A DNA stretch of 50,296 nucleotides from Anaerolineales bacterium (GTDB taxonomy: Bacteria; Chloroflexota; Anaerolineae; Anaerolineales; DRMV01): positions 1-50,296 of the forward strand of contig JALXBY010000244.1 in NCBI GenBank assembly GCA_026991215.1, given 5' to 3'. Position numbers and translations under genes: made by a program. The notes under the pieces are model-generated. The model was given only the letters and a program-made list of their open reading frames with translations. It searched no databases and had not been told where the DNA came from. Positions 3,145 through 23,627 of the stretch are shown in pieces. Numbering within the stretch: position 1 is the stretch's first letter; the number at the start of each line of letters is the position of its first letter.

Positions 3145-4260
3145 CTAACCCTGGAAGGTATCTGCCCGGAACCCAAAAATTGTCACAGCCCGTTGCAAGC
3201 GGGGTTCCCATACCGCAATGTGGGGGATGCGTCGCGCCAGGGCCTGTGCATACGTGCCGTAGACCCAGCGTGGCAGTCGGCCCCAAAGAATGACGGAACG
3301 CATGGCTTTGGGCCAGTTGGGTTCAGGTAAAGTGGTGGGCATGAGAAAGCCGCGAAGTTGGATTCGCAGAAGCCACCGTCCCGCGTCCACGGGCTCCATG
3401 TGAAGGAGCACGTCCTTTGTGCCTGAAGTATCCACCTGGGGCAGGTGGACCCATCCCAAATGGGCATCAAAGACCGCCATGGGAGCGGGCGCCACATGCG
3501 CCGCTATGGCCGCGGCCAGCCAGGTCGGTCCGCGACCGTACAGGGATACAGGTCCACGCGGAATCACTCGAAGCAGACGAGGGAGGTCCTCTGGAGTCCA
3601 CCAGGCAGGTAAAGGTTTCCCCAGGGTGCGGGCCAGCTCCCGCTCACTAAGGAACGGATACGGTGCGGTTTTCCGATGCAGGGCTTCCAGGTCTTCCTCC
3701 CGGAGGCGGAACAAGGCAAACACCCGGCGGGCTAAAGCCTCAAAGGTCTTTCCCAGGCGGGGATGGTGCCGGTCCAGCCCGGTAATGGTTCCGGTGAGAT
3801 ACGGATGCGTCCCCGCGAGGACATCCTCCCCCTGAAGGCGGCTTTCCAGGACAGCAAGGAGGGAGAGGTCCGTGGCGCGAATGTGGGCCATCCAATATTC
3901 CCGTTCCTCGGGTGTACGGTAAAGCAAGATACCGTGGGTACATGCCCGAAGGATTTCCCACTGTTCACCCCGTGGCCGTCCGCCCATATCCACCAGGAGC
4001 GGGGTGTGCCGGTGCTGGAGAAGCGTCACCATGCGTCGTACCAGGTCCGGCGTATAACGGCCTTTGGCCGCAAGACGCAGGGAGAGCACCTTATTTCGGG
4101 GCCCTTCATAAAACCAGTTCCCTTCGCCATCCGGCGCGGTGCGCAACAGATAATGGGCGAGACCCGCCCGATATAAACGCCGGCTGAGGTGATACGCCAA
4201 TACGGACTTGCCACTATGCGGTGGCCCCATGACCAATAAGGCGGGGAGATTTAAGCCCAT
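3145..4260 (-). CDS. csx3: P-loop NTPase fused to a C-terminal Csx3-like (cA4 ring-nuclease family) domain, preceded by a second partial Csx3-like motif
   Basis: 371 aa. It has Walker A GPPHSGKS (res 12-19) and Walker-B-like PLLVDMGG. Res 285-371 (LLHMEPVDAGRWLLRIQL...VILWGRLPRWVYGTYAQALARRIPHIAVWEPRLQRAVTI) matches, from memory, A. fulgidus Csx3 (...VVISGRGPIWLHCFLAHKYHHTPFVAVYDPRLGAVVV). A second copy of the motif, YGRGPTWLAAAIAAHVAPAPMAVFDAHLGWV, lies at res 241-271. Confidence 0.65.
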   Translation of the reverse strand: MGLNLPALLVMGPPHSGKSVLAYHLSRRLYRAGLAHYLLRTAPDGEGNWFYEGPRNKVLSLRLAAKGRYTPDLVRRMVTLLQHRHTPLLVDMGGRPRGEQWEILRACTHGILLYRTPEEREYWMAHIRATDLSLLAVLESRLQGEDVLAGTHPYLTGTITGLDRHHPRLGKTFEALARRVFALFRLREEDLEALHRKTAPYPFLSERELARTLGKPLPAWWTPEDLPRLLRVIPRGPVSLYGRGPTWLAAAIAAHVAPAPMAVFDAHLGWVHLPQVDTSGTKDVLLHMEPVDAGRWLLRIQLRGFLMPTTLPEPNWPKAMRSVILWGRLPRWVYGTYAQALARRIPHIAVWEPRLQRAVTIFGFRADTFQG

Positions 4261-4332
4261 GGCACCCCCTTTCCCTATATCGGCATGGTATCATTCAAAC
4301 ACATCATTTTGAGCCTCCGAAGAGGAAAAAAC
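4261..4332. promoter_or_regulatory. 72-nt divergent control region between the csx3-fusion gene and the CARF-LuxR / cas operon
   Basis: This is the only sizeable non-coding gap in the CRISPR island. It contains TGGTATCAT (extended -10-like, 4286-4294, + strand) and the direct repeat ATCATT-N7-ATCATT (4290-4308). GAGGA (4322-4326) lies 6 nt before the ATG at 4333. Confidence 0.35.
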
Positions 4333-5253
4333 ATGCTGGGGGAAAGGCTTCTGGCCTCCTTGGGAGGCCAACCTCAAATTTTGACTTTTACGTTGGATGC
4401 TTTGCTAGCACGGGGAATCCGCCCGCAAGTGGTGGAAGTTGTCTTTCCGGGAGGAAACCCCGTCTACCAAGCCGCTTTTCGTCGGCTTCAACGTGAATTT
4501 ACGCGCTATCAAGCATACCAATCCATTCCTTTGCAGGCCTGTAGCCTTACAGACCGAGACGGCCATCCTCTTCCGGATTTACTTTCTGATTTGCATTTAG
4601 ATGAAGCCTGGCAACAGGTGCGTGACCGCGTACGTACGCTGAAAGCCGAAGGTTGGCGTTTGCATTTTAGCATTACCGGCGGCCGCCGTGCGCTGGGCCT
4701 GATGCTCTACGCCGCGGCCATGACCTATGGCTCGCCCCAGGATAAGGTCTGGCACATCTACACCCCGCCCGAATGGCTGGCCCAGGTCAAGGATGGCGCG
4801 CGCATGCACCTGCCCCAGGGCACGGTGCGGTTGTTGGAGATTCCCTTCGTGCCCTGGACCGCGTATTTCCCCGGTTTGCGAAGCCTGTTGGAGATGTCCC
4901 CGGAAGTGTTGCGTCGGTTGATGGGGGAAGGGCTGGATGAGGAAACCCAACGCCGTTGTGCCCGGGTGTGGGCGCGGCTGACCCCTCGCCAGAAAGATGC
5001 GCTACGGGCCTTGGCCACCACGGAAACCCGGGCCGAAGCCGCGCGGGCCATGGGCGTCGACCTGGATACCCTGGATTCCCATCGCAAGGCCATTCTGCGG
5101 GTGTGCCGCGCGGCCTGGCCGGAGGCCAGGGTGGATTTGCGCTTTGTGCGCCGGGTCTTCCGGCTGTGGCTGACCGCCACTAACGGCCTCCCCACTTTGC
5201 GGGGAGATTTTCAGGAGGAGATGGGGATGGAAACTACGAATTTTTCCTCATAA
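4333..5253 (+). CDS. CARF (NE0113/TIGR02584-like) domain fused to a LuxR/FixJ-type HTH: predicted cOA-responsive transcription regulator
   Basis: The start is placed at the internal ATG with an SD; the track start at 4285 has none. N-terminal SLGGQPQILTFTLDAL and SITGGRRALG are the two hallmark CARF/NE0113 motifs. Res 216-257 (LTPRQKDALRALATTETRAEAARAMGVDLDTLDSHRKAILRV) fits the LuxR-type HTH pattern. Confidence 0.7.
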   Translation: MLGERLLASLGGQPQILTFTLDALLARGIRPQVVEVVFPGGNPVYQAAFRRLQREFTRYQAYQSIPLQACSLTDRDGHPLPDLLSDLHLDEAWQQVRDRVRTLKAEGWRLHFSITGGRRALGLMLYAAAMTYGSPQDKVWHIYTPPEWLAQVKDGARMHLPQGTVRLLEIPFVPWTAYFPGLRSLLEMSPEVLRRLMGEGLDEETQRRCARVWARLTPRQKDALRALATTETRAEAARAMGVDLDTLDSHRKAILRVCRAAWPEARVDLRFVRRVFRLWLTATNGLPTLRGDFQEEMGMETTNFSS

Positions 5254-5281
5254 AGTCATTCTTGGTCAGGGAGGTTTTGCC

Positions 5282-5449
5282 ATGGCGGATGAATGGCTGG
5301 AGCACCTTTTGGAAAGGCCTTCGTCCACGGCCCGCCAGATGCTGGAACAACGCACCGGCATGCAGGTTCTCTCCCTCAGCGACCTGCCGGCCTTTCTGGA
5401 AGCAGCCATGCGGGCGTGGGTGGAGGCGCAAGCCGAGCCCACATCCTGA
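5282..5449 (+). CDS. Hypothetical 55-aa acidic protein directly upstream of cas10
   Basis: My own translation gives MADEWLEHLLERPSSTARQMLEQRTGMQVLSLSDLPAFLEAAMRAWVEAQAEPTS*. GGGAGG (5269-5274) lies 7 nt before the ATG, and the stop is 15 nt before the cas10 ATG. It is below the 60-aa cutoff of the ORF track. Confidence 0.45.
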   Translation: MADEWLEHLLERPSSTARQMLEQRTGMQVLSLSDLPAFLEAAMRAWVEAQAEPTS

Positions 5450-5464
5450 ACTTTAGGAGGTTGT

Positions 5465-7090
5465 ATGAGCCAGAAAAACGTACTTCTCCAAGGCGATGTA
5501 GACGCCATCAAATCCTATGTATTTGAGGCTTCCGGGCTACCCCAAATTCGCGGTGGCAGTCAACGGCTCATCAAATGTGAGCAAGAAGTGGAAAAGTTGG
5601 TAGAACAGCGGGGAGGGCGCACGATTTATTGCGGAGGAGGTGGTTTCCTGTTTGAAATACCTGCGGACGAAGCAGAAAATCTCAAACGCGAAATCGAGCG
5701 CATCTACCTAAAGTACACCCAAGTGGCTACTGTGACGGTAGTGTATGAAGACGCTCCTGAGCTCCCTCTTCCCGAGCCAAACATCACGGATGGCTGGGCA
5801 GGTCGTCTGGTCAAGGCCCATCAGGAAGCCCAGAGCGCCGGCGAATTTGCCCGTCGCACCGCGTTCCTGGCCGCGAGGTTGCGGGAGGCAAAACAACAAA
5901 AGCAGGTCGTACCCTTTATTGAAGCCTTCCCCTTCGGTAAGCGGTGTGAGATTTGCGGTAAGCGGGTGGCGGAAAGGAAGGTGACTTACACCCAAAGCGG
6001 GATGTTTGAAACGAAACATGTGTGTCGTGTGTGTTACCGGAGACATCGCACAGGTCGTATATGCCGCCACCGTGGTTTTGAGCGATTCTTAGAGAAGAGG
6101 AGATATAACTTACCATCCACTCCTCCCAAGGATGTGAACGAACTGGCTGCAAGTGCACGACGCCCTTATGTGGCCTTTCTCTATGCTGATGGGAACAACG
6201 TCGGCGACCTGTTACAGAAGGTCAAAGACGAGAATGAATATGCAGTCCTATCCAAGGCCCTAACAGAGGGCACAGAACAAGCCCTGTACGAGGCCCTTTG
6301 GGAGGTCTGCCAAAAGCCACTGGAACAAGAGAAAGCCTGGCCCTTTGAAATCCTCAACATCGGCGGTGATGACGTTACCCTGCTTATACAAGCCGGGTAT
6401 GCCTGGGATGTGGCCGTGGCGTTTCTGGGGAAATTCGAGCAATATGTACAAGAGAAGGTGAAGGATAATCTCGGTTATTGGCCCGCGGCTTGGCCCATGC
6501 CTATTACCGCTTCGGTGGGTATTGCTATCGCCGATGCCAAACACCCCGTGTGGTATCTGGAAGCGCTGGCCACCGACCTGCTCAAGAAAGCCAAAGTCAA
6601 GGCCCGGCAGGCGGAAACAAGCGCCATCAACTTCCTGTGGTTGCCCAACGCCATTGCCATTACCAGAGCCGAAGCCGTCACCGAGCAATACAAAGTGGGC
6701 GATTTTCATCTGACCGCACGGCCTTTTACCCTGGCGCAAGCGAGAAAGATGCAAGATGTGGTCAATATCCTCGCTTCATGGCCCCGCAGCCTGCGCCATC
6801 GGTGGGGCAAGGCCCTGGAACGCGGGCGTTGGACCGCTCTCTCCCAAATCCTTTATGACCTGGCCCGACGGCGGAACGGTGAGCATCGTGAAAAGGTGGG
6901 AAGATTCATCGATGCCTTAGAAGACTTGGCCACGACGTTTCAGGCTGAGCGGGAAGACGAGGCCCCCATTTATCTCTGGTGGCCCACCGAGGAAAATGGG
7001 CGCCGCATCTGGAAAACGCCTTTGCTGGACGCCTTGGAACTGGCCGAACTTCGCGCCATGCGGTCGGATATTCAAGAGGAGGGCGACTAA
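5465..7090 (+). CDS. cas10: Cas10 large subunit, compact (541 aa), no HD domain, intact GGDD cyclase motif
   Basis: AGGAGG lies upstream. The N-terminus starts directly with the Palm1-type motif LLQGDVDAIKSYVF...IRGGSQRL. A treble-clef Zn finger is present (C161-x2-C164...C187-x2-C190; nt 5945-6034). The Palm2 motif is ILNIGGDDVTLL, with GGDD at aa 300-303 (nt 6362-6373). Confidence 0.88.
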   Translation: MSQKNVLLQGDVDAIKSYVFEASGLPQIRGGSQRLIKCEQEVEKLVEQRGGRTIYCGGGGFLFEIPADEAENLKREIERIYLKYTQVATVTVVYEDAPELPLPEPNITDGWAGRLVKAHQEAQSAGEFARRTAFLAARLREAKQQKQVVPFIEAFPFGKRCEICGKRVAERKVTYTQSGMFETKHVCRVCYRRHRTGRICRHRGFERFLEKRRYNLPSTPPKDVNELAASARRPYVAFLYADGNNVGDLLQKVKDENEYAVLSKALTEGTEQALYEALWEVCQKPLEQEKAWPFEILNIGGDDVTLLIQAGYAWDVAVAFLGKFEQYVQEKVKDNLGYWPAAWPMPITASVGIAIADAKHPVWYLEALATDLLKKAKVKARQAETSAINFLWLPNAIAITRAEAVTEQYKVGDFHLTARPFTLAQARKMQDVVNILASWPRSLRHRWGKALERGRWTALSQILYDLARRRNGEHREKVGRFIDALEDLATTFQAEREDEAPIYLWWPTEENGRRIWKTPLLDALELAELRAMRSDIQEEGD

Positions 7091-7750
7091 ATGGTGCATC
7101 TCAAAATCGCCTTGCGTCTCAAATGGCGAACCGCGTTCCACACCACAGGCAACCGCTGGCGATGGGGCGCGGACAAGGCCCTGGTCCAGCGATATGACGA
7201 CACCTATGTACTCCCTGCCACCTCCCTCAAAGGTGCCCTGCGAGACCAGGCTGAACAATTGCTACGTGGCCATGTGCACATCTGTAATGCACCCGACCCC
7301 GGTCAAATGTGCTCGGATCTTGAGAACTTGTGCTTAGTCTGTCGGGTCTTTGGCAACCCCCGGCGGCCTTCTCTCTTACGATTTCAGGACGGGGTTTTGA
7401 GGAGAAAGAATATAGGCGAGATAGAGACCCAAATCCGCGCCGGTGTAGCCATCAGCCGACGCCGTCGTGCAGCGGTTCCCCAGCGGTTGTATTTTGTGGA
7501 AACCACCGTGGCAGGCCCCGTGGAAGCCCAGACAGTTATCGAAGGCTTCTTTCCTTCTCAACAAGAGGCCGAAGAGGCCGCGGCCCTGGTAGTTTTGGCG
7601 GCCCGGATGCTCCCGGCGTTGGGCGCGGGGCGTACCCGCGGCCTGGGTTGGCTGGAAGCCATTGAGACCGAATGCACGATGGACGGCCAGCCGTTAGCCG
7701 GGACGGCGCTGGAACGCTATTGGAACCGGTGGTTAGGAGGCGGCCAATGA
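7091..7750 (+). CDS. cas7: Cas7-family RAMP (Csm3/Cmr4-like)
   Basis: The ATG immediately follows the cas10 TAA. Motifs present are GADKALV...LPATSLKGALRD, CRVFG and the glycine-rich loop GAGRTRGLGW. Confidence 0.85.
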   Translation: MVHLKIALRLKWRTAFHTTGNRWRWGADKALVQRYDDTYVLPATSLKGALRDQAEQLLRGHVHICNAPDPGQMCSDLENLCLVCRVFGNPRRPSLLRFQDGVLRRKNIGEIETQIRAGVAISRRRRAAVPQRLYFVETTVAGPVEAQTVIEGFFPSQQEAEEAAALVVLAARMLPALGAGRTRGLGWLEAIETECTMDGQPLAGTALERYWNRWLGGGQ

Positions 7751-8985
7751 AGCCGATATGGTTGAAAATTACCCCCGAGGAGCCCCTGGTGCTGGGTTCG
7801 GTGCGGCCCGATGCCCAATTTCTGACCACCCGCGCCTACATTCCCGGCCGCCTGTTGCGGGGTGCCTGGGCCGAGTGGCTCAAAACACAAGGCGAGGAAG
7901 ATGAGGGCATTCTCGCTCAAGTCAAAAAACTGCGAATCTGGAATTTCTACCCCGCGGTGGATGATGGCCAGTTATTGTACACGTTACCCCTCCCCCTCAC
8001 GGCCATGACGTGCAAGCACGAATCGGGCTTCCAGACCGCCTTCCTGTCTAAGAACAAAGGGCACGGGGTGGTAGATACCTTGCTCCCCCAACTGGCCTAT
8101 CACTTGTTGCGCGAAGCCGGAGCCCAAATGACCGCCCCCTTCGCCCTTACATGTGCCCAATGTGATGGCCGGATGGAACCGGCAGAAGGCTTCTACGGCG
8201 TATATGAAGCCCATGGCAGGGTGGGTTACGAGCAATTTCGTCCTCGGTACCATGCCCAAACCAAAGTGGCCTTAAGCCGCTTCCGTCGGGCTTCCCAGTT
8301 TCAGATGCTTTACACCGTGAACGCACTCGCGCCCCAAGCCCCGGCGGTGATAACAAGCAACAAAAAGGATGAGCCCAAAAACAAGTCTGTGGTGTTCCTG
8401 GGGCGAGTGTACGGGGACCCACAAGCCGTACAAGAACTGCGGCAGGCCCTGGACCATGTAGCCATCGGCGCACTGCACACCCGAGGGTATGGGCGGGTGC
8501 ACGTTGAGGAGAGCGACCCCCCTCAATGGCCTGGCCTCAAGGAGCGGGTCGAAACCTTCAACCGCATTTTGACCGATCTCTGGCAGGACCTTAAACGCCT
8601 CGCGGCCAACCCGGACGGACTTCCGGAGAAGCCCGACGGCCTGTACTTCTCGGTGGACTTGCTTTCGCCCGGTGTGTTCGTCAACCACGGCCTGCCCGAA
8701 CTGGTTCCGGAGTTGTACATCAACGGTCGCGTCCTCCGGCCCATCTGGTGGGCGACTCGACCGGATATGGCCAGCGGCTGGTCCACCGCGTGGGGCCTGC
8801 CCAAGCCCACCAACCTGGCCGCACGCATGGGGAGCGTCTACGTCTACCGCTGGGACGGTAGCATGGACGACCTGCTTCCCGCACTGCAAGCCCTGGAAGC
8901 CGAAGGCCTGGGCCTGCGCCGAGACGAGGGCTTCGGCGAAATCTTGGTGTGTCATCCCTTTCATCAGGAGGTAGAAGAGCGATGA
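7747..8985 (+). CDS. csx10: Csx10-like Cas5-family RAMP (type III-D)
   Basis: The start is taken at the ATGA overlap with the upstream stop (MKPIWLKITPEEPLVLGS...YIPGRLLRGAW). G-rich loops HTRGYGRV and RRDEGFGEILV are present. Its 412-aa size and its position after cas10-cas7 match csx10 in III-D loci. Confidence 0.7.
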   Translation: MKPIWLKITPEEPLVLGSVRPDAQFLTTRAYIPGRLLRGAWAEWLKTQGEEDEGILAQVKKLRIWNFYPAVDDGQLLYTLPLPLTAMTCKHESGFQTAFLSKNKGHGVVDTLLPQLAYHLLREAGAQMTAPFALTCAQCDGRMEPAEGFYGVYEAHGRVGYEQFRPRYHAQTKVALSRFRRASQFQMLYTVNALAPQAPAVITSNKKDEPKNKSVVFLGRVYGDPQAVQELRQALDHVAIGALHTRGYGRVHVEESDPPQWPGLKERVETFNRILTDLWQDLKRLAANPDGLPEKPDGLYFSVDLLSPGVFVNHGLPELVPELYINGRVLRPIWWATRPDMASGWSTAWGLPKPTNLAARMGSVYVYRWDGSMDDLLPALQALEAEGLGLRRDEGFGEILVCHPFHQEVEER

Positions 8986-9392
8986 AGAAGTTAAATTCGA
9001 GAACCCGTCAGGCACTCGCGACGAAAGAGGACGAGTTGGTGCAACAGGCCCGCGAAGTGGCGAAGGCATTATGGGAGTCCTTAAACGAAAAACAGCGGAA
9101 AGACGGTAAGGTGCGCCAACTGCGCAACATCCTGGAAGTCGCCAAGAGCACCGACTCATGGAAGGCTTTGGCCTTGTTTGTCCGATACCAGGCTGCACGC
9201 ACTACAGATAACATTCCCCGAGATTGGGCAGAGTATCTGATTGATGAGATGGAGAACTTAACGGACACTGCCAATGAGATTGCAAAACAAACCCATGATG
9301 ACCCTAAGACAATTCACCTGGAAATGGTCACCCGCGTTTTGGGCCACGCGGTGCGCTGGCATCTCTGGGATGTGAAAAGCCAGGAGGGATAA
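8982..9392 (+). CDS. cas11: Cas11 small subunit (Csm2/Cmr5-like), all-helical, 136 aa
   Basis: The ATGA overlaps the csx10 stop. The sequence is helical with a KVRQLRNILEVAK segment resembling the Csm2 (T/S)QhRKh motif. The position is canonical. Confidence 0.65.
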   Translation: MKKLNSRTRQALATKEDELVQQAREVAKALWESLNEKQRKDGKVRQLRNILEVAKSTDSWKALALFVRYQAARTTDNIPRDWAEYLIDEMENLTDTANEIAKQTHDDPKTIHLEMVTRVLGHAVRWHLWDVKSQEG

Positions 9393-9395
9393 GCC

Positions 9396-10193
9396 ATGTT
9401 TGACACCTTTAACAACCGTGTGGTGCTGCGGGCCACTTTGGAAATGCAAACTGCCCTTTCCGTGGGTAGCCGCATTTCGCTGGAGCCCGTGGGCACGGAC
9501 CTACCCGTTATGAAAGGGCCGGATGGTCTTCCGTTCATCCCCGGCTCGTCCATCAAGGGCACGGTACGGGCGCTGACCGAGCGCATTTTGCGCAGCCTTC
9601 CCAACGGGGAGGAAATTGGTCTATGGGCCTGTGACCCCTTCGCAGACCCGTGTGTGGATCGGAACCAGGCCCGCATCTGGCTGCAGGATGAAGCAACTGA
9701 GCATCTGGTTTGGGATGAAGCCTGCACCGCGTGCCGCATCTTTGGTTCCCCCTGGCTGGCCAGCCGGGTGTCCTTTAAGGATGCCTACCTGGAGAACTCC
9801 GAAGACCTGCCTGTGGTCACCCAGATACGCGATGGCGTGGGCATTGACCGGGACCTGGGCGCGGCCCGCCAGGGCATCAAGTACGACTTTGAGGTGGTTG
9901 TGCCAGGGGCCAGGTTCGGCATTGAGATTCTGACCGAAAACCTGGACGATTGGGAGTTGGGCCTTCTCCTTTCGGTTTTGCGGTTCTGGCAAGAAGGCCA
10001 GTTGCCCTTGGGCGGCAAAGTGACTCGCGGCCCCGGCTGGGGAAAACTGAAGGACCTGCGCCTGGAGCGAATTGACCAAACCAATTTGGTGAACTACCTG
10101 ACAGGCGGCCAACCGGCCCAGGACAGCCCGGAGAAATACCTTCAGGCCTTCCGCGACTACCTGAGCCAGCAACTGAACCAAGGGGAGGGATGA
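9396..10193 (+). CDS. cas7: Cas7-family RAMP (Csm3-like, probable target-RNA-cleaving subunit)
   Basis: Motifs present are VGTDLPVMKGPDGLPFIPGSSIKGTVR (Asp loop plus the GSSxKG motif), CRIFGSPW and LGGKVTRGPGWGKL. Confidence 0.88.
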   Translation: MFDTFNNRVVLRATLEMQTALSVGSRISLEPVGTDLPVMKGPDGLPFIPGSSIKGTVRALTERILRSLPNGEEIGLWACDPFADPCVDRNQARIWLQDEATEHLVWDEACTACRIFGSPWLASRVSFKDAYLENSEDLPVVTQIRDGVGIDRDLGAARQGIKYDFEVVVPGARFGIEILTENLDDWELGLLLSVLRFWQEGQLPLGGKVTRGPGWGKLKDLRLERIDQTNLVNYLTGGQPAQDSPEKYLQAFRDYLSQQLNQGEG

Positions 10194-10196
10194 CCC

Positions 10197-11078
10197 ATGC
10201 ATAAGACCCGATACAACGCCCTGCACTTGACCGTGCGCATTCGTCCTAAAGGCCCCTTGCTGATTAAGGCCGGCGGTATCTCCGCCAACCCCGCATTGCC
10301 GGATATGCAATTCGTGCGCACGTTTCACCCTGACCGAGGCGAAACAGTCTACATTCCCGGTTCATCCCTCAAAGGGGTTGTGCGGGGATTTGTGGAGAAG
10401 GCCCTGCGCACCTTTGATGCCCGAGACAGTTGGCGTTGGGCCTGTCCAACATTCCCCGATGAAGCGGAGAGTTGTGCCCGACGCTTGCAGAATGAGACGG
10501 ATACAGCATCGGTGTACCGCCAATCCTGCGGTGCCTGCCGCATCTTCGGCCATACCCGGCTGCGGGGCCGGCTTTCCTTCACCGATTTCTTCCCCGTGGA
10601 AGAAGTGCGCACCGAAATCCGCTACGGTGTGGCCATCTCGCGGCTGACCCACGCGGTGGCCCATGGGCCTTTTGAAATGGAAGTAGCCGTCTCGGGGACG
10701 TTTGAAGGGCACCTGGTGCTGGAGAACTTTGAAATCTGGCAGTTGGGACTGGTGGCTACGGCCCTGGCCGCTATGAATCAAGGCCTGGTGAAAGTGGGCT
10801 TTGGCAAAAACCGGGGATTCGGTGAGGTAGAAGTGGAGGTGCGCGAGGCCTGGGTGGACGAAGTTGTTGTGAACTATCACCCCGAGCGCCTCCGGGGCCT
10901 GAGGGCTTTTGTGGACAACGCAACGGCGCAGGCCTATGGTTTGTTCCCACCGGCCGATTTGGACCTGCAAAACGGCCCTGAATTCACCCGTGAAGAACCG
11001 TTGGGCGTGTACACGCGGCGGGTATACGGCACGCAGGGCTGGAATGAATTAGCCCGGCTTGCCATCCAGGCACTGTGA
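10197..11078 (+). CDS. cas7: Cas7-family RAMP (Csm3/Csm5-like)
   Basis: Motifs present are LPDMQFVR...VYIPGSSLKGVVRG, CGACRIFGHTRLRG and GFGKNRGFGEVEV. Confidence 0.88.
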   Translation: MHKTRYNALHLTVRIRPKGPLLIKAGGISANPALPDMQFVRTFHPDRGETVYIPGSSLKGVVRGFVEKALRTFDARDSWRWACPTFPDEAESCARRLQNETDTASVYRQSCGACRIFGHTRLRGRLSFTDFFPVEEVRTEIRYGVAISRLTHAVAHGPFEMEVAVSGTFEGHLVLENFEIWQLGLVATALAAMNQGLVKVGFGKNRGFGEVEVEVREAWVDEVVVNYHPERLRGLRAFVDNATAQAYGLFPPADLDLQNGPEFTREEPLGVYTRRVYGTQGWNELARLAIQAL

Positions 11079-11089
11079 GGGTTGGAGCC

Positions 11090-11533
11090 ATGCAGGGATT
11101 CGTCTACTACCTGACAGGCACCAGCGAAGAGCTGCAACGCCTTGCCCAAACCCATCTGGGCGAGGCTGTCTGGCATTGGGTCGCCGACGCTGCCCGTCTC
11201 ACTGTGGGAGAAGGCTACCCTGCAGACTGGAAAGAGCAGGGGGCGGTTTTCAATACCCAAGGCGAATTGTGTTGGCGCGCGTTGGGTAATGAGCAGTACG
11301 AGGCCCTCTTGCTCACCACAAAGGCCTTGCCCAACCACAAAGTGCTGCCCGGCGAATGGACGGTAGAGGAACAGACGCTTTATCTGCAGGACTTGCGAGA
11401 AGCCCGGGTTTTGCCTCAATTCGCCCAGTATCCCACAGGAAAGTCAACAGGCAAGATTCGGATCCGGCTCTACCGTCGCAATGGTGTGCCCACCTTTGTG
11501 AGTTTGTGTGAATTCCTTGAGGAGGAAGCATGA
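11090..11533 (+). CDS. csx19: Csx19 (all1473)-like type III-D associated protein
   Basis: A protein of 147-152 aa with no RAMP motifs sits exactly where all1473/csx19 sits in III-D operons, between the third cas7 and the last RAMP. The start is either the ATG at 11090 (GAGG 7 nt upstream) or the GTG at 11075 overlapping the upstream stop. The family assignment rests on position and size only. Confidence 0.5.
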   Translation: MQGFVYYLTGTSEELQRLAQTHLGEAVWHWVADAARLTVGEGYPADWKEQGAVFNTQGELCWRALGNEQYEALLLTTKALPNHKVLPGEWTVEEQTLYLQDLREARVLPQFAQYPTGKSTGKIRIRLYRRNGVPTFVSLCEFLEEEA

Positions 11534-12537
11534 TGGCACGGCGTTCTGAACCTGAACCCAAGCCCTTCTTCTGGGTCTTGCTGGACGAGTCTCCGCAGAA
11601 AACCCGGCCGGTGTTCCACGAAAAATTTGAGGGCTGGACAGGCCGTTTGGTTTGGGAGATTGAGGTGCTCTCGGACTACCTTTATGTGGGAAGCGGGAAC
11701 CTGGACTTGGTGCGGTTGCCCGATGGCCGCGAACAGGCCCGCTATGCCTTTGCCCGCCGGGATGGGCAGTTGGTGATACCCGCGACCAGTATCAAGGGCG
11801 CGGTGCGGGCAGTGTTTGAGGCCATCACAAACTCGTGCGTTTCTCAACGAAACCGTCGGGAGCGGCCCCTTTCTACTGCTCATATGGCATGCGGTCTGGT
11901 TCGCAAAGGGAAAGAGGAGAAGGCCCGACTCTGCCCGGCCTGCCGCGTTTTTGGCACAACGGGCTACCGCGGCCGGGTGCATTTCTCCGACGCGGTCCCG
12001 GTAGGCGAGGTGCGCACCGAGACCATCAAAATCGCTGACCTGTGGCCCCCGCGCCAAGTCCGTAAGGCGCGTAAGTTTTATCAAACCAAGGCTTTCCAGA
12101 AGCAAGACCTGCACCCTCGCAAGAACACCCGTTTTCTGGAAGTTGTCCCCAAAGGAAGCCGTTTCCGTACCACCCTGTACTTTGAAAACCTGAGTGGTGC
12201 AGAAATGGGCGCACTGATGAGGGCGCTGGGCTTGGGCCTCCATTCCAGCAAGCCCAACACGATTGTTTACGCCTTCCCCCTCAAATTGGGCGGGGCCAAG
12301 CCGCGGTGTTTAGGAAGCGTCCGCTTTCATCCCCGTGGTGTATTCATTCAAACATCCCCGTCTACGGACGCAGATGATCTTTGGCAGCGGTTCCTTCAAT
12401 CTGCTCCAGGGGGGGTGAAAAACTTGCTCCTCCAGTGGCTCCAATCCGAGGCATTGTTGGACGAAGAGGCCTGGCACCAATTCCGTGCCGAAGCCCAACC
12501 CCAGACGGATGAAGCCTGCCCGCGGGAGGTGTACTGA
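11530..12537 (+). CDS. cas7: Large Cas7-like RAMP (TIGR03986-like, III-D terminal RAMP)
   Basis: The ATGA overlaps the upstream stop. Motifs present are LVIPATSIKGAVRAVFE, CPACRVFGTTGYRG and KLGGAKPRCLGSVRF. Confidence 0.8.
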   Translation: MMARRSEPEPKPFFWVLLDESPQKTRPVFHEKFEGWTGRLVWEIEVLSDYLYVGSGNLDLVRLPDGREQARYAFARRDGQLVIPATSIKGAVRAVFEAITNSCVSQRNRRERPLSTAHMACGLVRKGKEEKARLCPACRVFGTTGYRGRVHFSDAVPVGEVRTETIKIADLWPPRQVRKARKFYQTKAFQKQDLHPRKNTRFLEVVPKGSRFRTTLYFENLSGAEMGALMRALGLGLHSSKPNTIVYAFPLKLGGAKPRCLGSVRFHPRGVFIQTSPSTDADDLWQRFLQSAPGGVKNLLLQWLQSEALLDEEAWHQFRAEAQPQTDEACPREVY

Positions 12538-12872
12538 TGAGCCGCGAGGATGAACTGGTGACCCTGGCGGAACAAATCGCCGATGGCCTGCCGGGGGTCA
12601 CGCGCAACGAGTGGATGAAGTGGGTGCAGATTCTTCAGGCCTATCAAGCCCAATATCGCGATGCGCTTCAACGAGCCATCCATTACGCACAACGTTTATC
12701 CAAAGACCCCACAATGCGGCCGGCCATACAGCGGGCCCACCGCTTGATTGCGCAAACCATGCAGCGCTATGCCCGGCGCGTTGCCTCTTTGCCTCGTACC
12801 GAACAACAGCGCCTGTTCGGTTATGTGGCCTGGAGCCTGGTTGTTCAGGGTAAACAGGGGCGGAGGCGATGA
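12537..12872 (+). CDS. Hypothetical 111-aa helical protein, operon-coupled to the effector genes
   Basis: Its ATG shares one nt with the upstream TGA. The sequence looks all-helical (MSREDELVTLAEQIADGL...QRLFGYVAWSLVVQGK). I recognise no motif. Confidence 0.6.
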   Translation: MSREDELVTLAEQIADGLPGVTRNEWMKWVQILQAYQAQYRDALQRAIHYAQRLSKDPTMRPAIQRAHRLIAQTMQRYARRVASLPRTEQQRLFGYVAWSLVVQGKQGRRR

Positions 12873-12875
12873 GGA

Positions 12876-13595
12876 ATGCCACGATTTGTTTTCGATACAA
12901 ACGTACTCATCAATTATATTCGCTATGATGATCAAGAGGTGCATGATGCTTTAACAGTAGCCGCGGATTTGGGGGAAATTCTTATCTCACAGATATCTGT
13001 TTTAGAAATGTGGGCACCAGTGAAATGGAAGATCAAGGAAGAATCTCCTAACTTGGTGCCTTTATGGATTCGGAAATTAGAGGAAGGTGAGGTTCCTGCA
13101 GGAATGCAGGAGGTGCTTTTGCATGAATTAAGCGAATATCAACAACCTCTTCCAAACCAGTTTTTTGTAGATACTCTTCGAAAAGGTCGAAGATGGTCTA
13201 TTTCGGACGAAAATAAACAGCTGATTTCAGTTGTTGAATACACAGGCAATTCTCTTATCCTAATGTCTCCGGATATACGCCGCAGTCAAGTGGAACAGGA
13301 AATATCTACGCTAAAACATATTTGTGAGACGTTCGACGCTCAAATTATCCCCGTCTCAGAACGCGCCCAATATTATGCAGAGCTTATAGTTCAGCACTAT
13401 AGGGATACCCTGGGCAGAAACACCATTACGGATAGCCTCATTATAGCAACAGGACTCGAACATGACGCATGGTTGGTGACTTATGATAATAATTGGGAAA
13501 AAGTTAAGAAAGATATGAAAAACAGATCTTTGCCTTTACCTGAAATGAAAGTAATTGATCCTGCACGCGTGGCTCACGGGGAGGTGCATTCATGA
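12876..13595 (+). CDS. PIN-domain (VapC-like) nuclease with a roughly 100-aa insertion; AT-rich gene
   Basis: PIN acidic positions are FVFDTNVLI (D7), SVLEMW (E44), TITDSLIIATG and LVTYDNNW. At 239 aa it is far longer than the roughly 130 aa of a canonical VapC. Hand-counted GC on 60-nt samples is about 37-38%, against 53-58% in neighbouring cas genes. Confidence 0.75.
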   Translation: MPRFVFDTNVLINYIRYDDQEVHDALTVAADLGEILISQISVLEMWAPVKWKIKEESPNLVPLWIRKLEEGEVPAGMQEVLLHELSEYQQPLPNQFFVDTLRKGRRWSISDENKQLISVVEYTGNSLILMSPDIRRSQVEQEISTLKHICETFDAQIIPVSERAQYYAELIVQHYRDTLGRNTITDSLIIATGLEHDAWLVTYDNNWEKVKKDMKNRSLPLPEMKVIDPARVAHGEVHS

Positions 13596-14608
13596 CCAAA
13601 GTCAAAAACATCCTTCTGGCCACCCTGGGTACCGCACCTGCCGTAATTACAGAAGCCGTAGATTTGTTGCGGGAAGAAGGCGTTCACATTGATGGCATCT
13701 CGCTATTCTTGACCGAAGATTCCGATGTGCGGGATAGCTTTTCTTTGCTCGCCCAACACCTTCCTGCCCACGATGGAATTGTGTGGATTTCACCTATTCA
13801 GATCGGCGTGTACACCGATATCGACAGCACACAGGCTGCGGCCGAATTTCTCCAACTGGCCAGCCAATACCTCAAGACCCTACGAGATGCAGGCCATCGT
13901 GTGTATGTATCCATTGCAGGCGGGCGTAAAGCGATGTCTGCGCTTCTCGCGCTGGCCGTGCAATTTTTCGGCGCCGAGCGACTTTTCCATATTTGGGTTC
14001 CACCCTGGTTGGAAGAAGAAGGTGAAATCCATGAACTGCGCAAGTGGAAGCATTTACCTGAGGAATTGACCCGAAAACTGCATCCTACCTTGAACGCCGA
14101 GCCAACTGACCGCCCGCGTTTGGTTACTCTTCCTGTTATCGGACTCTTTCCTTTTCTTGAAGATATCCGCCTTGCCTTAACGGAGCAGGGCGAAGTGCCA
14201 CGCGACATTCGTCGCTTGCTCCGTGAAAACGGCCTACTTACTTCCCAGGGCGAGGTCACCGAACTGGGGCGGCTCATTAGCCAGATTCTTGAAAGCGTTG
14301 AGGGGTTGCCACCGGCCCGCCAGGAGGAATGCAAAGTCCATATTGCTCCGCATCATTACAAGGACCGACTGGAGAAATTTGCCTGGCAACTGTGTGGGCG
14401 TTTTCCCTTTATCACGGAAATTCAAAGCGGAGAGTGGCGAAGCGGTGAAGGCAAGATCAAAACCGAGCCTCCAAATCGTATCCGAATCTTTGAGCCCTTA
14501 GGCACCGACTTCCCCTTGCAATTGATTCTGACCACGACTGCCAAAACGTCGGGCCAATTGGAAGCTGCCCGGCGAGCGATTGAGCGATTCTTAAAAGCAC
14601 GGAGGTAA
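13592..14608 (+). CDS. CARF (NE0113/TIGR02584-like) protein with a wHTH-like linker and an unassigned C-terminal domain
   Basis: The ATGA overlaps the PIN stop. CARF motifs are LLATLGTAPAVITEAVDLL and SIAGGRKAMSALLA. Res 195-235 are HTH-like (RDIRRLLRENGLLTSQGEVTELGRLI). Res 245-338 match nothing I recognise. Confidence 0.7.
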   Translation: MTKVKNILLATLGTAPAVITEAVDLLREEGVHIDGISLFLTEDSDVRDSFSLLAQHLPAHDGIVWISPIQIGVYTDIDSTQAAAEFLQLASQYLKTLRDAGHRVYVSIAGGRKAMSALLALAVQFFGAERLFHIWVPPWLEEEGEIHELRKWKHLPEELTRKLHPTLNAEPTDRPRLVTLPVIGLFPFLEDIRLALTEQGEVPRDIRRLLRENGLLTSQGEVTELGRLISQILESVEGLPPARQEECKVHIAPHHYKDRLEKFAWQLCGRFPFITEIQSGEWRSGEGKIKTEPPNRIRIFEPLGTDFPLQLILTTTAKTSGQLEAARRAIERFLKARR

Positions 14609-14610
14609 CT

Positions 14611-15585
14611 ATGGGTGTCTATCACCTGATGGGTCTGGGGCGCTCACCAGGTGCCATTACTGGCCCTATCTCTTATCTGGCCTCCCGCTATCAGCGGTGG
14701 AACGAGGAGGACCGGGCCTTTTTCGCCCGCTCAGGGGAGGTTCGTCAACGGGAAGCAGGCGAGAAGGTGGGCGATATACAGGCCGTTGTGTTGTTTACGA
14801 CTCGGGAGATTCTCAGCGGAACCGTTCCAGCGTTTGACTATGTGGACAATCCACTTGGACGGATCGCAAAGGACCCGCGGGTGTCTGGCGGGCCGATGAA
14901 GGAGGTGCTTCGTCGGTTATTGCGCCGTGAATGGCCTGCCATCAGCGGCGGTCGTCCCGAAGGCACCGTCTTCTGGTGCGAAGTCGATCGCCGGGATATC
15001 CGCACCACCTATGAGCGAGTGATCTGGGTCGTGGCCGCGCTGGCCGGCGTCGGCGGGCAAGGAAAAGAGATGTGGGTCAACTTGACGGGAGGTAACAACG
15101 TGATCAACTTCGCCCTGGAACTGGCTGCTACCCTCTCCGGTGCTGTGGCGCGGCTTTATTACGTGCAGGCGGAAAACCCGGACGCTGAGAAATGTGTGCG
15201 CTTTACAGCGGAGGACGGATACTGGGTGGAATTACCGGTTATGCCCTTGGCATTGAGCCCTTTGACACGCGCTATCATTGATTTGCTTGCGCAAAAAGGC
15301 CCTATATCTTTGGGCGATCTGTACAGCATCTTGAGGAACAAGTACTGGAACTTAAGCTATGGACTCACATCGGAGGAAGTTCTGCGGGAGGCCTATCTGG
15401 CTCCAATGTGGAAACAAGGCCTTATCGTTGAGACACTTGAAGGCTATAAAATTGGCCCACAATGGGAATTGGTGCAACCTTACCAAGAATTATGGGAAGA
15501 AGCCCTCAGATGCAATGAGACCATCGAACAACTGGCCCAAACAGAGCTTTGGCTCGAACGCGAAATCATTACATGGGAGCGCTAA
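14611..15585 (+). CDS. CARF domain protein with C-terminal winged-helix (Csa3-like architecture)
   Basis: CARF-type motifs are the N-terminal LMGLGRSPGAITGPISYL and NLTGGNNVINFALELA. The C-terminal LTRAIIDLLAQKGPISLGDLYSILR...MWKQGLIVETLEGYKIGP looks like a wHTH. Confidence 0.6.
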   Translation: MGVYHLMGLGRSPGAITGPISYLASRYQRWNEEDRAFFARSGEVRQREAGEKVGDIQAVVLFTTREILSGTVPAFDYVDNPLGRIAKDPRVSGGPMKEVLRRLLRREWPAISGGRPEGTVFWCEVDRRDIRTTYERVIWVVAALAGVGGQGKEMWVNLTGGNNVINFALELAATLSGAVARLYYVQAENPDAEKCVRFTAEDGYWVELPVMPLALSPLTRAIIDLLAQKGPISLGDLYSILRNKYWNLSYGLTSEEVLREAYLAPMWKQGLIVETLEGYKIGPQWELVQPYQELWEEALRCNETIEQLAQTELWLEREIITWER

Positions 15586-15588
15586 CCC

Positions 15589-15987
15589 ATGCTCATCCTC
15601 AACTTTGCCCACCCCCTGACCGACGAACACCTGGCGCAAATCGAGAAACTCACAGGCCAGAAGCCCGAGCGGGTGGTAGTCATCAACAGCCAGATTGACC
15701 CTCAGCAGCCCCTGGCACCACAAGTCTCGGCCATGGCCGATGCTGCGGGATTGACCCCTGAAGAGTGGCAAACCCTTCCCCTCCTCATCAACCCGCCCGC
15801 GCTCAACTTTAGCGCGGTCGCGCTCATCGCGGAATTGCACGGACGCATGGGCTACTTCCCGCCCTGCATCCGCATGCGGCCCGTGGTCGGCCCAGACGGC
15901 CAGCGTGTGGTTCCGCCCCGCTTCGAGGTGGCGGAGATTTTGAACCTGCAGGCCATTCGGGATGAGGCGCGCAGGTCCCGTGCATAG
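15589..15987 (+). CDS. Small CRISPR-associated protein, possibly Csx15 family (candidate ring nuclease)
   Basis: This 132-aa ORF is the last gene of the operon. From memory, MLILNFAHPLTDEHLAQIEKLTG...LIAELHGRMGYFP...FEVAEILNLQAIRDEAR resembles the cyanobacterial Csx15-type proteins that accompany type III loci. This has not been verified. Confidence 0.4.
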   Translation: MLILNFAHPLTDEHLAQIEKLTGQKPERVVVINSQIDPQQPLAPQVSAMADAAGLTPEEWQTLPLLINPPALNFSAVALIAELHGRMGYFPPCIRMRPVVGPDGQRVVPPRFEVAEILNLQAIRDEARRSRA

Positions 15988-20607: not shown

Positions 20608-20653
20608 GCGTTCAGCCTCCTCCACGATGGGGTGCCTTCGATTGTACTTGATG

Positions 20654-20716
20654 TGGTTGGTGGTCGATGGTCGATGGTCGTTGGTCGTTGGTCGGTGGTC
20701 GGTGGTCGTTCGTCGG
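20654..20716. repeat. Heptanucleotide tandem repeat, 9 units (TGGTTGG TGGTCGA x2 TGGTCGT x2 TGGTCGG x2 TGGTCGT TCGTCGG)
   Basis: Read directly and period exactly 7. It lies in the divergent tdk / pfpI-like intergenic region. Confidence 0.9.
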
Positions 20717-20852: not shown

Positions 20853-21377
20853 ATGACGTTGCAGGGCAAGCGCGTGGTCGTGCTGGTCGAAGAGGGGTTT
20901 GAGGACCTGGAGTTCTGGGTGCCCCGGATGCGCCTGGAAGAGGCCGGTGCGGAGGTCATCGTGGCCAGCCGCAAGCCCGGCACCTACCGGGGCAAGCACT
21001 GCCTGACCGCGACCGCGACGGTCGCCGCGAAGGACCTTTCCCCCAACGATGTGGACGCGGTGGTGGTACCCGGCGGCTGGGCGCCGGATAAACTCCGCCG
21101 CGACCCCGGCGTGCTGGATTTGGTCCGGGGGGTGTACCAGCAGGGCAAAATCGTGGCCAGCATCTGCCATGGCGGTTGGGTGCTGATTTCCGCAGGCATC
21201 GTGGCCGGGCACCGGGCCACGGGTTCGGTGGGCATCCGCGACGACCTCATCAACGCCGGGGCCACCTGGGTGGACGAACCCGCCTTCCAGGAGGGCAACC
21301 TGGTCTGGGGCCGGGTGGTCCAGGACATCCCCGCCTTCTGCCGGATCCTCATCCAGGCCCTGGAACAGGCGAAGTGA
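20853..21377 (+). CDS. DJ-1/PfpI-family protein (intracellular protease/deglycase-like)
   Basis: Motifs present are [28 protein letters not shown] and the nucleophile elbow [21 protein letters not shown] lies 5 nt upstream of the chosen ATG. Confidence 0.88.
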
Positions 21378-21387
21378 CGGCGGGCGG

Positions 21388-21478
21388 CAGTCCGCAGTCA
21401 GCGGTCGGCAGTCGGCGGTCGGCTAACTGCTAACTGCTAACGGCCAACGACCATCGACTAACGACCATCGACGAATGA
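21388..21478. repeat. Heptanucleotide tandem repeat, 13 drifting units (CAGTCCG CAGTCAG CGGTCGG CAGTCGG CGGTCGG CTAACTG x2 CTAACGG CCAACGA CCATCGA CTAACGA CCATCGA CGAATGA)
   Basis: Read directly and period 7 throughout. It fills the gap between the PfpI-like gene and the COG2403 gene. Confidence 0.9.
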
Positions 21479-21495
21479 CGAAGGAGGAATCTCCA

Positions 21496-22863: not shown

Positions 22864-23571
22864 ATGAGCACCGCGGCCCCGCTCCCCCTGCCCGAACGGG
22901 ACGAGGACTGGCAACGACGCCTGGCCGCGCTGAGCCAGGCCGCCCGCCACCTGCCCTGGCTGGGCCCGCCGGGTTCGGAACGTACCGCACGACCGGCCGC
23001 GGTGCTGGTCCCCCTGCTTCGGCATGAGGGCATCTGGCACCTGCTTTTCATCCGGCGGGCCCGGCACGAACACGACCCCCACAGCGGCCAGGTCTCCTTC
23101 CCTGGCGGCCGGGTGGAACCCCAGGACCCTTCGCCAGAGGCCACCGCGCTGCGGGAGGCCGCGGAGGAAATCGGGCTGCGGCCCCAGGACGTGCGGGTGC
23201 TGGGCCGGCTGCCCCGGGTCCGCACGGTGACCGATTACCTGGTCACGCCGGTGGTGGGGCGCATCCCCTGGCCGTACCCCCTCCGGCCGGCCCAGGAGGA
23301 AGTGGCCGAGGTGTTCACCGTGCCCCTGGACTGGCTGGCCCGGCCGGAGCACCGGGTGCAGGTCTGGCGGGCCCTGCCGGGCGCGAGGCCCTACCCCGTG
23401 TTCTTCTTTCACCCCTATGGCCCCCAGGAACACGTTATCTGGGGGGCCACGGCTCGCATGGTGCTCGCGCTCCTGGCCGCCCTGGACCTGCTGGACCCCA
23501 CCACAACCCAGGCCCTGGGCCTCAACCCCCAATCCACCATCGACCAACGACCATCGACCACCAACCACTGA
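22864..23571 (+). CDS. Nudix hydrolase (CoA pyrophosphatase-like)
   Basis: The Nudix box is GGRVEPQDPSPEATALREAAEEIGL. The last roughly 12 codons read through a heptamer repeat tract. Confidence 0.85.
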   Translation: MSTAAPLPLPERDEDWQRRLAALSQAARHLPWLGPPGSERTARPAAVLVPLLRHEGIWHLLFIRRARHEHDPHSGQVSFPGGRVEPQDPSPEATALREAAEEIGLRPQDVRVLGRLPRVRTVTDYLVTPVVGRIPWPYPLRPAQEEVAEVFTVPLDWLARPEHRVQVWRALPGARPYPVFFFHPYGPQEHVIWGATARMVLALLAALDLLDPTTTQALGLNPQSTIDQRPSTTNH

Positions 23572-23627
23572 CGACCACCGACGATCGACCACTGACGACC
23601 ATCGACCAACGACCATCGACTGATAAA
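23534..23627. repeat. Heptanucleotide tandem repeat, about 13 units (CCATCGA CCAACGA CCATCGA CCACCAA CCACTGA ...)
   Basis: Read directly. It is the reverse-complement family of the 20654 tract (NCGACCA vs TGGTCGN). It overlaps the 3' end of the Nudix gene. Confidence 0.85.

Follow-up and report, generated by a model that had tools for sequence, protein, structure and literature searches.

Characterized CARF regulators and the CARF-LuxR gene

By 2022, the only experimentally characterized transcription factor responding to cyclic oligoadenylate (cOA) was the archaeal Csa3 (PMC9704534), and no newer one was found in the literature searched. Csa3a binds cyclic tetra-adenylate (cA4) without cleaving it, has no catalytic lysine and regulates cas promoters (PMC8699464). 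In the Crn1 ring nucleases, which include Sso2081 and Sis0455 as well as the forms Sso1393 and Sis0811, whose C-terminus carries a winged helix-turn-helix (wHTH) domain, mutation of Ser11 or Lys106 cripples catalysis (PMC10018336). Surveys have found HTH-like domains in many uncharacterized CARF proteins (PMC11754643; PMC4012209). The present analysis concerns a gene at 4333–5253 (+ strand) of a stretch of DNA from an Anaerolineales bacterium (contig JALXBY010000244.1, positions 1–50,296; this whole stretch of 50,296 nucleotides (nt) is called the window), whose 306-amino-acid (aa) product joins an N-terminal CARF domain to a LuxR/GerE-type HTH domain and is referred to as CARF-LuxR. From its sequence and predicted structure, CARF-LuxR is on balance probably a cOA-responsive transcription factor. 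A regulator made of CARF and HTH domains is an expected idea, and the value of the family lies in a well-defined experimental target and not in conceptual surprise: it offers a compact, testable bacterial case, with a CARF domain apparently without ring-nuclease chemistry, a LuxR-type output and a fixed genomic partner.

CARF-LuxR resembles Csa3 in having an N-terminal CARF sensor followed by a C-terminal DNA-binding domain and in being encoded beside cas genes that it presumably controls. It differs from Csa3 in its DNA-binding domain, which is a LuxR/GerE four-helix HTH and not a winged helix, and in its CARF family, which is of the NE0113 type ('CARF3' in PADLOC), the profile TIGR01884 reaching only 12.6 bits (E 0.065) against a cutoff of 60. 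The contrast with winged-helix regulators of the Csa3 type drawn in the original prediction, an earlier reading of this DNA from its letters, is thereby upheld, with a C-terminal domain of GerE type and TIGR01884 below threshold. An assignment of the CARF domain to clade CARF7 was dropped, since the PADLOC model names give 'CARF3' (and 'CARF5' for a Csx14-type paralogue in the same operon). Csa3 occurs in archaeal and bacterial type I-A/III loci, whereas CARF-LuxR occurs in Chloroflexota and is nearly always paired with a gene for a nucleoside triphosphatase (NTPase) fused to Csx3-like repeats. The family is already catalogued in databases. PADLOC PDLC01855 ('CARF3--CARF') matches the protein over its full length (residues 5–280 against model positions 6–285 of 288; 244 bits, E 6e-73) under a name that carries no effector or HTH label, and IMG labels family members 'Csx14', while Pfam architectures show both domains. 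No functional description of the family, and no paper on a fusion of CARF with LuxR/GerE or on such a gene paired with AAA-Csx3, was found in the literature searched, the 2020 CARF classification lying outside it.

Gene structure and the CARF domain

The start codon of CARF-LuxR, an ATG at 4333, agrees with the N-termini of 29 homologues and is preceded by GAGG at 4322–4325, and the gene was judged to be real. A longer open reading frame (ORF) from an ATG at 4285 was rejected, as the N-termini of the homologues give it no support. The protein consists of the CARF domain (approximately residues 1–183, nt 4333–4881), a conserved linker rich in proline and tryptophan (residues 170–215), the four-helix HTH (residues 216–283, nt 4978–5181) and a disordered, clade-specific C-terminal tail after residue 283. 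The end of the ORF at 5253, the distance of 72 nt to a divergent start codon at 4260 and the short downstream gaps (28 nt to a 55-aa ORF and, beyond it, 15 nt more to cas10) agree with the original prediction. Positions 1–25148 and 25149–50296 of the window are exact reverse complements without a spacer (arms of 25,148 nt, 100% complementary), and the contig is almost certainly a foldback artefact of assembly or amplification. The unique sequence amounts to 25,148 nt, with each feature doubled as a mirror copy, and the copy of CARF-LuxR at 45044–45964 (− strand) belongs to this artefact and is not a second gene; CARF-LuxR and its neighbors are unaffected by the foldback.

The N-terminal half of the protein is matched by Pfam Cas_NE0113 (PF09623) at E 1e-31 (110 bits, cutoff 23), and the same family is found in 30 of 30 family members. 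An AlphaFold2 (AF2) model based on 30 homologues has a mean predicted local distance difference test (pLDDT) score of 88.8, with values of 93–98 over residues 1–170, and its best PDB matches in Foldseek are the CARF proteins Sis0455, Sso2081, Csa3 (6wxq, 2wte), Cad1 and Csm6 (probability 1.0; target-normalized TM-scores up to 0.73). The CARF assignment made in the original prediction is thus far beyond chance, and its two motifs lie where they had been placed, LGGQPQ (motif I) at 4360–4377 and TGGRR (motif II) at 4675–4689, both on the + strand. The pocket loops after strands 1 and 4 are invariant across 30 sequences (G11 G12 Q13 P14 Q15 and G116 G117 R118 R119), and the invariant polar residues of the pocket further include Asp137, His141 and His159 besides Gln13, Gln15, Arg118 and Arg119.

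Among solved CARF proteins, the Crn1 enzyme Sso2081 is the nearest relative by sequence (E 1.4e-5 with a CARF-only profile). In the profile alignment, LGTSPG of Sso2081 pairs with LGGQPQ of the family and TGGRKS pairs with SGGRRI, so that Thr10-Ser11 corresponds to Gly12-Gln13 and Arg105-Lys106 to Arg118-Arg119. The two residues on which Crn1 catalysis depends are therefore both replaced, Ser11 by an invariant Gln13 in motif I and Lys106 by an invariant Arg119 in motif II, and the helical lid insert of Sso2081 has given way to the Pro/Trp-rich linker and the LuxR-type HTH. Because both the Ser and the Lys of Crn1 are replaced, and with Csa3a as a precedent for binding cA4 without cleavage, the CARF domain of CARF-LuxR looks like a binding sensor and not a degrader. 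A Csx14-type CARF paralogue encoded in the same operon (13592–14608, +) keeps both a Thr (LGTAP) and a Lys (GGRK); from just those residues, a ring-nuclease function has been predicted for Csx14 (PMC8284326), and this paralogue is the better candidate for the ring nuclease of the locus.

These comparisons bear on two other explanations of CARF-LuxR. According to the first, the protein would mainly be a ring nuclease of the Crn1 kind that switches the signal off, like the CARF-wHTH proteins Sso1393 and Sis0811, and its HTH would be accessory or auto-inhibitory. Such a role would fit the rank of the Crn1 enzymes Sso2081 and Sis0455 as the closest solved relatives by profile and as top Foldseek matches, the name 'CRISPR-associated ring nuclease' given by NCBI to one family member and the reported auto-inhibitory action of the Sis0811 wHTH (PMC10018336). 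The loss of Ser11 and Lys106, which contrasts with the Thr and Lys retained by Csx14 of the same operon, and a strongly conserved HTH recognition helix, which points to selection for DNA binding, make this explanation rather unlikely. The second combines the two functions, with a cOA-responsive transcription factor that slowly cleaves its own ligand and so limits itself, as many CARF effectors do. Low-level ring-nuclease activity is common among CARF proteins (PMC8699464), and the pocket of CARF-LuxR offers the many invariant polar residues listed above; the known catalytic residues of Crn1 are nevertheless missing, and Csa3, the only characterized CARF transcription factor, does not cleave cA4. 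A dual function of this kind is considered unlikely, if somewhat less so than a role mainly as a ring nuclease.

The LuxR/GerE-type HTH domain

The LuxR/FixJ-type HTH of the original prediction stands at the level of the family and falls short for the window protein taken alone, which remains below the Pfam threshold. Pfam recovers the CARF half of the window protein clearly and its C-terminal half only as a GerE match that is borderline under the refuting condition named in the original prediction, while 26 of 30 family members match GerE (E ≤ 0.01, best E 1.9e-11) and the window sequence aligns with the family without gaps through the HTH. The motif LTPRQKDALRAL begins at nt 4978, as had been described. 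Against the PDB, a profile of the family retrieves the DNA-binding domains of LiaR, NarL, VraR, FixJ, EL222, GerE and RhlR at E values of 4e-7 to 6e-4 (4.3e-7 for LiaR, 4wt0; approximately 7e-7 for NarL, 8u3b and 1je8; 4e-7 to 2.5e-5 over LiaR, NarL, VraR and FixJ, and up to 3e-4 when GerE is included). The AF2 model places the four helices at residues 218–229, 233–240, 244–261 and 269–283 with pLDDT scores of 90–98. Taken at the family level, the profile matches and the model make the assignment of a LuxR/GerE-type HTH secure.

The predicted recognition helix, TLDSHRKAIL (5068–5097, +), aligns with STVKVHVKHML of NarL; Thr246, His250 and Ile254 in it are invariant, and Asp248 is kept in at least 90% of the members. 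The domain shares the four-helix fold and the signature LTxRExxVL...T..H...I with the LuxR/FixJ/NarL domains (Pfam GerE). Unlike LuxR/FixJ/NarL proteins, CARF-LuxR has a CARF input instead of a receiver or an autoinducer-binding domain; the family has a conserved Asp at the position of NarL Lys188, and its domain carries an extra conserved N-terminal helix with Cys209 and a second cysteine, Cys258, in the recognition helix. Both cysteines (Cys209, 4957–4959, in the helix before the HTH; Cys258, 5104–5106, at the end of the recognition helix) are kept in at least 90% of the family and might form a disulfide, a redox site or a metal site.

Since some members also match sigma factor profiles (Sigma70_r4_2 in 16 of 30 and Sigma70_r4 in 5 of 30), the C-terminal domain could conceivably act like region 4 of sigma-70 and contact RNA polymerase or another protein, such as the NTPase-Csx3 partner, instead of binding an operator of its own. 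A route from cOA to a sigma factor has a precedent in CalpL/CalpT/CalpS (10.1101/2024.05.08.593097), and the operator search of the intergenic regions, given below, found no motif. The GerE/LuxR profiles, however, give higher scores and match more members (26 of 30), DNA-binding domains of response regulators are the top PDB matches, and CARF-LuxR contains no other sigma regions. A sigma-like role for the domain is accordingly rated as highly improbable.

The divergent partner and the type III context

Relatives of CARF-LuxR number at least 351 at 90% clustering, most of them with precomputed matches to PF09623 and PF00196, and 258 matching loci were found in 185,579 species genomes (one genome per species). 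Among the 80 listed of these 258 loci, nearly all belong to Chloroflexota (Anaerolineae, Chloroflexus, Roseiflexus, Caldilinea and Thermoflexus), and the carriers include cultured Chloroflexus. Of 82 related loci, 76 encode a homologue of the P-loop NTPase-Csx3 protein immediately upstream of CARF-LuxR and on the other strand; the remainder include two loci with the partner upstream on the same strand and two that are cut by contig ends. Head-to-head pairing holds for approximately 95% of the related loci with enough flanking sequence, and the divergent layout with which the type III operon begins at its 5′ end, which the original prediction had read from the window, is a feature kept across related loci.

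Downstream on the same strand lie type III genes of different subtypes, III-D in the window, a Csm-type III-A in locus L083 and other variants elsewhere, and cas10 and RAMP genes follow directly in every Pfam-annotated locus inspected, although in the relatives an extra gene (Card1-like or of unknown function) often stands between CARF-LuxR and cas10. The window system was assigned to type III-D by matches to TIGR02674 (Csx10, E 4e-117), TIGR02581 (Csx7, E 4e-72) and the Cas10 palm2 domain (E 1e-20). Its cas10 (5465–7090, +; 541 aa) encodes a protein that opens with the palm domain and lacks an HD domain (Palm1 at nt 5492–5524; GGDD at nt 6362–6373, residue 300). Because this Cas10 keeps the GGDD cyclase motif, cOA signaling at the locus is plausible.

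The partner gene (3145–4260, − strand) encodes a 371-aa protein with a P-loop NTPase domain (Walker A GPPHSGKS, nt 4227–4204, −), a helical middle part and two Csx3-like repeats, and it matches PADLOC C3a67 ('AAA-Csx3') at E 1e-79. AAA-Csx3 corresponds to cluster 67 of Shah et al. (2018), with Caur_2269 as an example, and that study predicts the family to act as an ATPase that its Csx3 domain controls allosterically (PMC6546367). In a model of the partner (pLDDT 89.7), the N-terminal domain resembles the SIMIBI class (FtsY/SRP54, the synthetase domain of CTP synthase, MobB and GPN-loop GTPases) and not AAA+, and the Csx3 part is built of tandem repeats (residues approximately 233–271 and 298–359). 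The tandem repeats without His57 and His60, the SIMIBI NTPase and the pairing with CARF-LuxR all go beyond what the sections consulted of that study say about the AAA-Csx3 family (PMC6546367).

In Crn3/Csx3, His57 and His60 are absolutely conserved (Mn site), and an H60A mutant is inactive (PMC7371418). Both repeats of the partner have residues other than His at these two positions, although the alignment to AfCsx3 is weak (E 0.14–0.4) and only indicative, and a His close by in repeat 1 is not kept among 32 homologues. Both repeats keep a G-R/K-x-P-x-W loop. Set against the cA4-binding loop S-G-R-G-P of Csx3 and its Asp69/Arg71, repeat 1 has an invariant YGRGPxWL and a consensus FDAR (FDAH in the window), and repeat 2 shows SGKLPRW together with DP(R), which is conserved in part. 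The original prediction had taken this gene for the ring nuclease that destroys the signal, a label that is unsafe because His57 and His60 are missing from both repeats. Judged from these positions, the partner is probably not a Crn3-type ring nuclease, and it is no less likely to be an NTPase regulated by cOA than a signal-destroying enzyme; an easy annotation error for the neighboring 'Csx3' protein is thereby corrected. Separately, residues 137–248 of the partner (3517–3849, −) show a weak likeness to the N-terminal and HTH region of Spo0J/ParB (PDB 6sdk, E 6e-4), and the protein may carry an HTH-like module of its own.

A further alternative is that the CARF domain of CARF-LuxR senses a ligand other than the cOA of Cas10, such as another nucleotide signal or RNA ends, and that its link with type III systems is indirect. 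RtcR, a regulator with a divergent CARF domain, is controlled by damaged tRNAs (PMC7790460), and several loci with 8-kb flanks gave no type III genes in an insensitive tblastn search with the Cas proteins of the window. The cas10 and RAMP genes found directly downstream in every Pfam-annotated locus inspected, the cA4-binding repeats of Csx3 type in the partner and the invariant GGRR loop, a phosphate-binding loop typical of cOA-binding CARF domains, speak against such a ligand, and the alternative appears improbable.

It is tempting, if tentative, to regard CARF-LuxR and its SIMIBI-NTPase/tandem-Csx3 partner as a control module of two genes that senses cOA, is widespread in Chloroflexota and heads type III operons of several subtypes. 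In such a module, CARF-LuxR would turn the infection signal into a transcriptional response, and its partner would serve as another cOA receptor, spending NTP to tune or reset that response, and not as a Crn3 enzyme. The CARF-LuxR protein of the module would then correspond, in bacteria, to Csa3 but bind DNA by a different chemistry.

The control region and the search for an operator

The two divergent start codons are separated by an intergenic region of 72 nt (4261–4332). It contains an extended −10-like element, TGGTATCAT (4286–4294, +), 38 nt upstream of the start codon of CARF-LuxR, and a direct repeat, ATCATT-N7-ATCATT (4290–4308, +), whose first copy overlaps the −10 hexamer; a scan for canonical −35/−10 promoters found no pair. 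Both elements are present as originally described, but the repeat is neither above chance level nor conserved: a repeated hexamer at such spacing arises in 18–36% of 72-nt shuffles, the unique half of the window has ATCATT-N7-ATCATT only once, and the closest relatives lack it. On these grounds it was rejected as an operator. The closest relatives (69–80% protein identity) share with the control region of the window only the extended −10, CATG(G/T)TAT(C/A)(A/C)T. In 18 of 76 loci, where shuffling predicts 8.7, the pattern TGnTAnnnT lies no more than 150 nt upstream of the start; its carriers include the clade of the window and eight Chloroflexus loci, with the pattern 30–50 nt from the start (71 nt in L008).

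Across 75 related loci, the intergenic length has a median of 60 nt and extremes of 0 and 1196 nt. Operators were sought in these regions as dyads, with inverted and direct half-sites of 4–5 nt and spacers of 0–14 nt, and as enriched k-mers, the latter also in regions including coding flanks; CATCA[AT] and ATCATT were tested specifically. The only strong dyad, GCCGC-N3-GCGGC, was discarded as a coding artefact, being the reverse complement of codons for the Walker A motif of the partner (GPPHSGK), and an enrichment of CATCAT is partly due to the reverse-complemented start codon of the partner. Phylogenetic footprinting of the Chloroflexus loci defined no site, as their sequences are either too similar (81% identity) or too divergent. 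The conserved feature of the control region is the adjacency and orientation of the two genes, with no recognizable operator.

In nine promoters with a recognizable extended −10 (the window, L022, L026, L028, L035, L041, L043, L048 and L053), an ATCA(A/T/G) element lies 1–10 nt downstream of it, as in ACATCATTTTGAGCC of the window (4295–4312) and GTATCAAGTTTGAGCC of L028. The element of the window falls within a small inverted repeat, TCAAA-N8-TTTGA. As a post-hoc observation that is not significant in family-wide tests, the ATCA(A/T/G) element is suggestive.

A probable cOA-responsive regulator

The analysis shows the two fused domains, the missing catalytic residues of Crn1, the synteny and the cyclase motif of Cas10; in the favored explanation, we infer dimerization, the ligand (cA4 or cA6), binding to DNA, the genes regulated and the direction of their regulation. 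Like other CARF proteins, CARF-LuxR would dimerize by way of its CARF domains, and cOA made by the HD-less Cas10 upon target recognition would bind the CARF dimer. The bound cOA would reorient the two HTH domains and alter their binding to DNA, which would change the transcription of its own operon, including the type III-D genes, and/or of the divergent NTPase-Csx3 gene. A regulator bound near 4286–4312 would cover the extended −10 and the start region of the promoter from which it is itself transcribed, so that the simplest reading in the window would be autorepression that is relieved or reinforced by cOA.

Several observations weigh against a cOA-responsive transcription factor. The nearest solved relatives of its CARF domain by sequence are ring nucleases, and the name given by NCBI to one member is that of a ring nuclease. 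The window protein scores only 14.4 bits against Pfam GerE (E 0.03), where the gathering score is 23.5, and Asp248 of the family stands at the position of NarL Lys188, which we take to be a DNA-contacting residue. In 22 of the 75 loci the intergenic region is estimated at no more than 30 nt, so that promoters and operators would there have to fall inside coding sequence, and no k-mer or dyad rose above the null in 46 non-redundant, strictly intergenic regions.

Other genes of the locus and repeats in the window

The CRISPR locus extends from 3145 to 15987, with housekeeping genes on both sides, and after cas10 the type III-D genes for Csx10 and Csx7-type RAMPs and the ancillary genes continue on the + strand to 15987; no CRISPR array, no Rfam match and no cas6 gene were seen in the window. 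The 55-aa ORF (5282–5449, +) has no family match and is conserved directly upstream of cas10 in close relatives. Versions that are 67–95% identical lie just upstream of cas10 in L001 and at the matching position in L002 and L005, whose contigs end before cas10. These three loci have an extra gene of 314–317 aa and unknown function between CARF-LuxR and the 55-aa ORF, which the window does not have. A 239-aa PIN-domain protein is encoded inside the III-D operon (12876–13595, +; Pfam PIN, E 2e-11) and matches PADLOC C3a166 ('poss. crRNA proc.') at E 1e-10.

The Csx14 paralogue matches PADLOC CARF5--CARF (E 8e-144) and has a C-terminal extension of approximately 125 aa without a function assignment. 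It is followed by an HFX_2341-like putative sensor (14611–15585, +; PADLOC CARF3--CARF, E 2e-27) and by a standalone Csx15 (15589–15987, +; NCBIfam, E 9e-49), which is also a putative sensor. Csx15 has recently been reported as a cA4-sensing domain in Schlafen fusions (PMC13462974). As predicted from the sequences of its products, the locus encodes at least four or five domains of cOA-binding type.

Tandem repeats of heptanucleotides (TGGTCGT, ATCGACC and GCAGTC-like) lie between housekeeping genes of the window at 20653–20716, 21373–21489 and 23525–23627 and in their mirror copies. Similar 7-nt arrays fill the intergenic region between the csx3 and CARF-LuxR genes in L017, L067, L057, L070 and L063. 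These arrays are similar to the short heptamers that cyanobacteria are known to carry in tandem repetition.

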